From: Verrucomicrobiota bacterium
GTDB taxonomy: Bacteria > Verrucomicrobiota > Kiritimatiellia > JAKQHR01
Direction of reading: 5' to 3'
Assembly (NCBI GenBank): GCA_029557905.1
Contig: JAKQHR010000092.1
Coordinates: 11,228-75,227 of the forward strand
DNA: 64,000 nt
Shown: positions 39,024-39,113 of the stretch, in pieces
How the letters are laid out: each line of letters opens with the position of its first letter
How positions within the stretch are numbered: position 1 is the stretch's first letter
Program-made: the position numbers and the translations under genes
Notes under the pieces: model-generated
Told to the model about the DNA's origin: nothing
The model's input: the letters and a program-made list of their open reading frames with translations, nothing else
Database searches by the model: none

Positions 39024-39113
39024 GAAAAGTTCCAATGATTGGAAGTTTTTGATTCAAAAGTTCCAATCATTGGAACTTTTTGCGCAGAAACTTCCAATGG
39101 CTGGAACTTTTCC
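39024..39113. repeat. Second array of three tandem AAAAGTTCCAATSATTGGAACTTTT palindromic elements
   Basis: Copies at 39024-39050 (ttccaatgattggaa), 39056-39081 (gttccaatcattggaac) and 39088-39113 (ttccaatggctggaac). Same family and same three-unit layout as 6711-6800, again between convergent gene ends. Confidence 0.85.

Follow-up and report, generated by a model that had tools for sequence, protein, structure and literature searches.

Short palindrome arrays at gene 3′ ends in a Verrucomicrobiota bacterium: a dispersed family of plausible bidirectional terminators or mRNA 3′-end stabilisers

What is a short palindrome doing three times in a row between the ends of two converging genes, and why does the same triplet recur elsewhere in the neighbourhood? 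We addressed this question in a 64,000-nt stretch of a Verrucomicrobiota genome (contig JAKQHR010000092.1, positions 11,228 to 75,227; hereafter the window, with its own numbering). In this stretch the original prediction, made from the letters alone, had pointed out a threefold palindrome between a Ser/Thr kinase gene and a convergent DUF805 membrane protein gene, and another array of the same element abutting the gene of a PP2C Ser/Thr phosphatase. Both arrays are present as described. We consider it probable, although with modest confidence, that they are extragenic palindrome arrays similar to repetitive extragenic palindromes (REP) and bacterial interspersed mosaic elements (BIME), acting as bidirectional hairpin terminators or as stabilisers of mRNA 3′ ends. 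We infer this role from the position and layout of the arrays, and from the lack of any other terminator in their spacers.

The array between the kinase and DUF805 genes (array 2, 39025-39111) is composed of three 25-nt palindromes, arranged head to tail with start-to-start spacings of 31 and 31 nt. The units have the form A4-GTTCCAAT-S-ATTGGAAC-T4, the middle one being perfect, while the outer units carry one to three departures each. The array takes up most of the 133-nt spacer between the two convergent genes, and lies 23 nt from the kinase stop codon and 23 nt from the DUF805 stop codon. The features of this locus are:

39025..39049, no strand: array 2 unit 1, AAAAGTTCCAATGATTGGAAGTTTT, off-palindrome at +8, with G.G instead of a G:C pair
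39056..39080, no strand: array 2 unit 2, AAAAGTTCCAATCATTGGAACTTTT, a perfect 25-nt palindrome
39087..39111, no strand: array 2 unit 3, GAAACTTCCAATGGCTGGAACTTTT, whose variant bases are the same as in the sister-species ortholog
37088..39001, + strand: Ser/Thr kinase with a CBM96 domain (Pfam), last gene of the uvrC-kinase unit; its adjacency to the array is not conserved
39135..39587, − strand: DUF805 membrane protein (Pfam), last gene of the MFS-DUF805 unit; its 3′ end keeps the array in the sister species
35579-37054: uvrC, in the same transcription unit as the kinase and within ~2 kb of array 2

The array beside the phosphatase gene (array 1, 6711-6797) has an identical architecture of 3 × 31 nt, and shares 1 nt, its last T, with the PP2C stop codon. 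The genes around it are:

6120..6704, + strand: flavin reductase, convergent with PP2C, last gene of the EIIA-NhaP-flavin reductase unit
6797..7978, − strand: SpoIIE/PP2C phosphatase, last gene of the ruvA-ruvB-PP2C unit; the array is kept at its 3′ end in the sister lineage
8067-9080: ruvB, within ~2 kb of array 1

Each array is therefore, by its flanking units, the meeting point of two convergent transcription-unit ends, and the two arrays occupy 2 of the 9 convergent gaps of the window. A 21-nt pattern allowing up to 3 mismatches finds exactly six units in the window, where shuffled sequences lead to an expectation of 0.01; the 15-nt core at 3 mismatches reveals no further unit in the 64 kb, and no promoter region of the window contains one. 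A scan of the window against Rfam 15 at the gathering score gave three tRNA matches only, and in E-value mode the array matched only generic miRNA-hairpin models, far under threshold.

The distribution of the element was determined by scanning one genome per prokaryotic species (596 Gb) for AGTTCCAATNATTGGAACT, which has 18 specified bases and for which ~9 chance hits are expected. Of the 67 loci obtained, 13 are singletons in unrelated taxa, without a neighbouring unit. The others come from a few metagenome-assembled genomes (MAGs) that are labelled Kiritimatiellia or Verrucomicrobiota, or are unclassified: ~17 loci in JBFXGK01, all containing the perfect unit, ~12 in CAYYAR01 and ~12 in CAIVKH01, with further ones in CALMYG01, RZYD01 and several one-locus genomes. 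The arrays have 2-4 units, and their period is constant inside one genome (31, 32 or 41 nt). The centre-to-centre spacings observed are 31 (42 times), 32 (47 times), 33 (4 times), 41 (4 times) and 42 nt (once), with lone outliers of 22 and 47 nt. The predicted dispersed family with a multi-unit organisation is thus borne out by the scan. The further proposal that three units are preferred holds in the 31-nt lineage, to which the window belongs (16 of 20 arrays), but not in the 32-nt genomes, where two units are the mode, nor for array 2 itself in two assemblies described below.

The sequence of the units is conserved in a particular manner. The core proposed originally, GTTC-N9-GAAC, is literally present, but the almost invariant part is the 15-nt TTCCAAT-S-ATTGGAA, and the outer G/C at ±8 is in fact the most variable position of the unit. 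At the centre stands a C or a G in 173 of 174 units, with both orientations seen, and this base shows no alternation when used as an orientation marker along an array. Linker sequences are unrelated from array to array, and this applies also to the at least 8 JBFXGK01 arrays in which a variant unit, GTTCCAACCATTGGAAG, stands beside the perfect one.

The abundance of the family is uneven, with 2 arrays per 64 kb in the window versus ~1 per 2.5 kb in CAIVKH01. Identical arrays, spacer included, are present on two CAYYAR01 contigs (L022 and L023), which points to the copying of whole arrays. The arrays with a 41-nt period come from a contig of 45% GC in RZYD01 (L044, RZYD01000036.1), which is syntenic with Oceanispirochaeta crateris and encodes an ABC ATPase 84% identical to the O. 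crateris protein. At the matching locus, O. crateris and an 88%-identical relative (L190, L191) have no arrays. Judging from these comparisons, the family appears patchy, crosses phyla and resembles a mobile repeat. The synteny of the RZYD01 contig with O. crateris extends over a sigma54 regulator, a histidine kinase, a sugar-binding protein, the ABC ATPase and a permease; the MAG is labelled 'Bacteroidia bacterium', and either this bin label is doubtful or the bin is chimeric.

Two other origins were considered and rejected. A CRISPR array, in which repeats of 23-55 nt alternate with unique spacers about as long or longer and cas genes are usually close by, is ruled out, as only ~6 nt separate the 25-nt units, no array exceeds 4 units and the loci are dispersed. 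A phage origin was discarded because all 16 viral-contig matches are coincidences in coding sequences (VPIIGT-type codons with a central A/T) that lack arrays.

The arrays sit at gene 3′ ends. Genes were called with a codon-log-odds caller trained on the long open reading frames (ORFs) of the loci, a crude procedure that makes the context counts approximate. Nearly all arrays are intergenic and start 3-30 nt past a stop codon. In JBFXGK01 they lie in 7 convergent, 7 tandem and 1 divergent gaps, against background gaps of 18, 75 and 14, and in the convergent gaps the array is practically the entire spacer. The ~20 JBFXGK01 genes whose stop codon is at an array include those for a cNMP-binding/rhodanese protein, CoaBC, OmpA, a sulfatase-TPR protein, YjeF, an aspartyl protease, YdjM, an ABC permease, a response regulator, a nucleotidyltransferase, a metallophosphatase, a class II (FBA) aldolase, Maf, RlmN and DUF362. 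The neighbours of the arrays are arbitrary and their functions are unrelated, and a search of the neighbourhoods for a cognate protein found no gene family recurring beside the arrays. A distribution random with respect to gene function and confined to terminator positions had been named originally as the pattern that would reduce the element to a generic terminator or REP family, and this is essentially the pattern obtained. A tblastx link between loci L004 and L044 was unsupported when the two TPR proteins were compared directly, and is probably a translated repeat.

The single array in a divergent gap of JBFXGK01 (L019, 894-1010) reaches into what is likely the 5′ end of an ORF for a secreted protein. 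Its last unit would encode the KKVPIIGSF start of the signal peptide, the palindrome in frame reading V-P-I-I-G.

Comparison with close relatives reveals what each array is attached to. JBFXGK01 is a sister species of the window organism, with 78-87% nucleotide identity over shared genes. In its locus L017, the ortholog of array 2 again follows DUF805 but faces pheS, while in L026 a different gene comes straight after the uvrC-kinase orthologs and there is no array. The two orthologous copies of array 2 are the same at 50 of 51 core positions, idiosyncratic variant bases included, whereas about half of the positions of the inter-unit spacers differ, with their length kept. In L169, from the sister lineage, the counterpart of array 1 comes directly after a PP2C ortholog of 82% identity, with gyrA as the convergent partner in place of flavin reductase, and homology to the window is lost where the far side of the array ends. 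No arrays are present within 21-22 kb of PP2C homologs of 55-62% identity. From these alignments, each window array is inherited with the 3′ end of one gene, PP2C for array 1 and DUF805 for array 2. The original prediction had asked whether the arrays keep their place in related genomes: they do so over a short evolutionary distance, but the position is tied to the 3′ end of one gene and not to a class of signalling genes. Synteny with the sister lineage also breaks exactly at both window arrays (flavin reductase to gyrA, kinase to pheS), which suggests that the repeats mediate or mark rearrangements.

The two arrays differ in how they have changed. Array 1 and its L169 counterpart differ at 11 of 51 positions, and the changes toggle among states allowed in the family (±8, ±1, ±2 and the centre), with TTCCA/TGGAA kept at 29 of 30 positions. 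Between array 1 and L169 1827-1903 all three unit centres are flipped between G and C with the arms kept; such flips would be the outcome if template switching inverted a hairpin loop. Among strains, the differences in array 1 are confined to spacers and flanks. Array 2, for its part, has lost one of its three units in two independent assemblies from the same species (L069 and L074, ~4453-4556), by a deletion of exactly 31 nt with a recombinant (hybrid) unit left behind, although collapse during assembly is possible. In practice the arrays can serve as markers of operon ends and synteny breakpoints, with a copy number that varies within a species.

The folding of the arrays is compatible with a role at transcript ends. 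On either strand, the 133-nt spacer of array 2 is predicted to form one ~89-nt hairpin with a minimum free energy (MFE) of −57 to −60 kcal/mol (z ~ −7.4), and array 1 a long hairpin of −48 kcal/mol, also on either strand; in the extended hairpin of each array, unit 1 pairs with unit 3. Canonical bidirectional terminator-like hairpins, with an A-tract, a GC-rich stem and a T-tract and energies of −24 to −26 kcal/mol, are found in the window at 14453-14486 and ~42668-42708, the latter in another convergent gap. The arrays fill the niche held elsewhere in the genome by ordinary bidirectional terminators, and the A-tract/stem/T-tract layout is common to both.

We therefore propose, on the grounds given at the outset, the following mechanism. 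Where a transcription unit ends, an array occupying the short spacer that directly follows the final stop codon would be transcribed from either side, and the transcript would fold into A/U-flanked hairpins, either three local, weak ones or a single extended one of ~40 bp. Read-through into the opposing or following gene would thereby be halted or reduced, and the mRNA 3′ end would be shielded from exonucleases. The family would spread, or would have spread, as whole multi-unit blocks, and not via the RAYT (REP-associated tyrosine transposase) that the window encodes.

Several observations weigh against this proposal, and they lead to the strongest rival. The hairpin of a single unit is weak, with −5.9 kcal/mol for the stem alone (3 G:C of 8 pairs) and −10.2 kcal/mol when A/U pairing is included, followed by only 4-5 U; such U4-5 tracts occur in the 31-nt lineage, while the CAIVKH01 flanks, from ±9 to ±11, are rich in A and T yet non-complementary, and the T-tract is often absent. 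There are arrays in divergent gaps, if few, one of which overlaps the 5′ end of an ORF. A purely structural role also leaves unexplained why the 15-nt core is invariant without compensatory changes, why the centre is C/G, and why the same 25-mer is found in genomes of 45% and 60% GC. Nor does structure alone account for spacers whose length is conserved at ~3 or 4 turns of the helix. Outside the core, covariation is limited to ±8 and to CAIVKH01 (35 Watson-Crick pairs versus 22.4 expected, p = 2e-4); at this position the 31-nt lineage, in which G.G and C.C occur commonly, shows none. In a rival reading, which the features unexplained by structure keep in play, the arrays would be helically phased operators for a sequence-specific, dimeric double-stranded-DNA-binding protein, either a 3′-end nucleoid or topology factor or the partner of a mobile element, with the RNA hairpins being incidental. 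The near-invariant core, the central G:C pair in both orientations, the spacings grouped at 31-33 and 41-42 nt, the spacers that diverge between sister species while keeping their length, the repeated pairing of GTTCCAACCATTGGAAG with the perfect unit amid unrelated spacers, and the non-complementary CAIVKH01 flanks all favour such operators. The 7-1-7 layout with a central AAT-N-ATT resembles that of Fur-family operators. We nevertheless regard this explanation as unlikely. No candidate protein was found, no gene family recurring beside the arrays; the roughly tenfold spread in density and the presence in one Spirochaete-like MAG but not in its close relatives fit a selfish repeat better, and unit number differs among strains. 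The helical-phase argument is itself thin, since there are only two spacing classes and the 41-nt class is one AT-rich genome with longer A/T tracts. A more specific version, which we put forward tentatively and also hold to be unlikely, is that the 7-1-7 core is read by a dedicated, undescribed protein (a DNA-binding factor or a non-RAYT mobilisation enzyme) that would be carried across phyla along with its sites, out of Kiritimatiellia into a Spirochaete-like lineage, and would bind cooperatively to units 3 or 4 helical turns apart at transcription-unit ends. If this were true, the arrays would go beyond hairpins and represent a new class of protein-addressed gene-end landmarks.

A mobile-element partner brings attention to the RAYT gene of the window, which is surrounded by a repeat of its own:

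14609..15082, − strand: RAYT-like Y1 transposase; phmmer versus E. coli RayT, E = 2.5e-11, with the HUH motif and the catalytic Tyr aligned
14494..15155: REP family of the RAYT, TGGAGGGYSGAGCTCYGCGA, copies at 14494(+), 14532(−), 14582(+) and 15136(−), distinct from the TTCCAAT family

The protein scores 21 bits with Pfam Y1_Tnp, just below the 23-bit cut-off. The units could then be classical REPs, or REPIN-like doublets, mobilised by a RAYT in the window or elsewhere in the genome; besides the gene itself, a RAYT-type REP lying ~35 nt from TTCCAAT arrays in L023, L037 and L041, with a variant in L022, speaks for this. However, the four copies of TGGAGGGYSGAGCTCYGCGA in the window, a different family, occur only beside this RAYT, and among 80 metagenomic loci with RAYT relatives (51-100% identity) ~50 bear a TGGAGGGYSGAGCTCYGCGA-type REP directly on both sides, while a TTCCAAT unit adjoins the gene in none. 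Conversely, the 67 array-bearing loci yielded no RAYT homolog, and the units are perfect palindromes without a conserved GTAG-like 5′ tetranucleotide. The window RAYT was accordingly rejected as the mobiliser of the arrays, since the REPs on either side of its gene, in the window as in related loci, belong to a different family, and mobilisation by any RAYT is in our view improbable. The arrays provide a clean case of palindromic arrays not tied to a nearby RAYT, which bears on the old question of how such repeats are maintained and spread without one. Far less credible still is the idea, following on from the original prediction, that the arrays are a shared cis-regulatory or post-transcriptional signal for the genes of eukaryotic-like Ser/Thr kinases and phosphatases, or an SOS-type operator of repair genes. 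It drew on real facts: both window arrays adjoin a kinase or PP2C gene, ruvB and uvrC do lie within ~2 kb of them, and the array after PP2C is kept in the sister lineage. Yet the JBFXGK01 kinase ortholog has no array, which stays with DUF805 instead, the more distant PP2C homologs have none, and the ~20 JBFXGK01 neighbours are functionally unrelated, so that the adjacency to Ser/Thr signalling and DNA repair is a coincidence. The arrays are at 3′ ends and not in promoters, the window has no units beyond the six, and no LexA-type site (TGTTC-N4-GAACA) is found near ruvAB or uvrC. Their proximity to these genes is explained by local synteny, each array being inherited with the 3′ end of one gene. 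A tempting but false link of the palindromes to Ser/Thr signalling or DNA repair is thereby removed.

Some further observations concern the surroundings of these elements. The RAYT-like gene sits in a pocket of low GC at third codon positions (GC3), and its pairing with TGGAGGGYSGAGCTCYGCGA is unusually conserved, as the same REP type accompanies relatives of only 51-61% protein identity. Two-unit TTCCAAT arrays of CAYYAR01 and CALMYG01 are followed ~35 nt downstream by the RAYT-type REP, with a conserved junction (AAGGTCT..TTCA..GGTCGCGGCGTCGCGGAGCTCCGCCCTCCA), at L023 6977-7085, L037 3367-3480 and L041 2194-2300, and as a variant at L022 277-400. These neighbours may represent a composite element, a common insertion niche or occasional joint travel. 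At L037 3480-3780, adjoining a TTCCAAT array, a ~130-nt tandem repeat (tttatcctcgtcctgatccttgtc...) is interleaved with RAYT-type REPs. The kinase next to array 2 has a paralog, the two genes (32975-35362 and 37088-39001) sharing a kinase domain with 75-83% identical stretches; they lie 4155 nt apart, with tRNA-Asp and uvrC in between.

Two DNA-level interpretations of the units were also considered and set aside. Curvature by phased A-tracts is disfavoured, as the A/T blocks of the units are ~9, 13 and 9 nt apart, not 10.5, and a core site of a tyrosine or serine recombinase is disfavoured by the single-base centre, which leaves no crossover region of 2-8 bp. Elsewhere in the window, at 21750-21875, after a 1108-aa gene and before the next gene, about a dozen A5-7 tracts recur every 10-11 nt (aaaaacgctc, aaaaacggca), a pattern classically associated with intrinsically curved DNA; here Tandem Repeats Finder detects periods of 10, 21 and 31.

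How do the arrays compare with known systems? Fur-family operators read TGATAAT-N-ATTATCA and relatives, and their outer bases differ from those of the TTCCAAT units. The units moreover lie at 3′ ends, being almost absent from divergent gaps in the 31-nt lineage (one case, L019), and are very many in one genome (extrapolated from ~1 per 2.5 kb), which is not regulon-like. The DNA uptake sequences (DUS) of Neisseria and the uptake signal sequences (USS) of Pasteurellaceae are invariant short sequences, over-represented genome-wide and found downstream of genes, where inverted pairs double as terminators. Their sequence conservation is imposed by a protein rather than by a hairpin, as it would be in the arrays if a protein reads the core, but they are lineage-specific and not organised in fixed-period tandem arrays. 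Intrinsic (Rho-independent) terminators share with the arrays the A-tract/stem-loop/T-tract order, the symmetry on both strands and the filling of the spacer between convergent stop codons. Ordinary ones, however, are individually unique, GC-rich, single hairpins, whereas the arrays are one conserved sequence repeated 2-4 times across genomes and phyla, with weak stems.

The REPIN/RAYT systems of Pseudomonas and enterobacteria (Bertels and Rainey, PMC3337134) are closer: they too are dispersed palindromes whose copy number varies by genome and whose sites persist over species-level divergence, with whole multi-unit blocks apparently copied. The defining link to a cognate RAYT does not hold for the window RAYT, the only one available for the comparison, which has its own, different REP family, conserved at no fewer than 50 related loci. 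The closest likeness is with the REP/BIME elements of E. coli, such as REP325, a six-REP array reported to be a dual terminator and mRNA stabiliser in 3′ untranslated regions (UTRs) (bioRxiv 10.64898/2026.03.23.713779). Both are short extragenic palindromes with fixed spacing, located in 3′ UTRs and convergent gaps, at many loci with unrelated neighbours and at locations that vary among strains, and the 25-nt units are within the REP size range of ~20-40 nt. There are differences: REP stems are imperfect and GC-rich, with a GTAG-type 5′ tetranucleotide, while the units here are perfect palindromes with A/T-tract flanks, and they do not flank the RAYT of the window, the one for which this was tested. 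BIMEs, which are bound by DNA gyrase, IHF or DNA polymerase I, alternate in orientation and have a small set of conserved linkers, whereas here the linkers are not conserved motifs and no Y/Z alternation is visible, although the perfect unit and GTTCCAACCATTGGAAG both recur as unit subtypes. Among 8 million full texts, none contains the core sequence and no paper ties Kiritimatiellia to such repeats. This palindrome-array family, from a poorly studied phylum, is previously undescribed, and probably belongs functionally with the REP/BIME-like extragenic palindromes.

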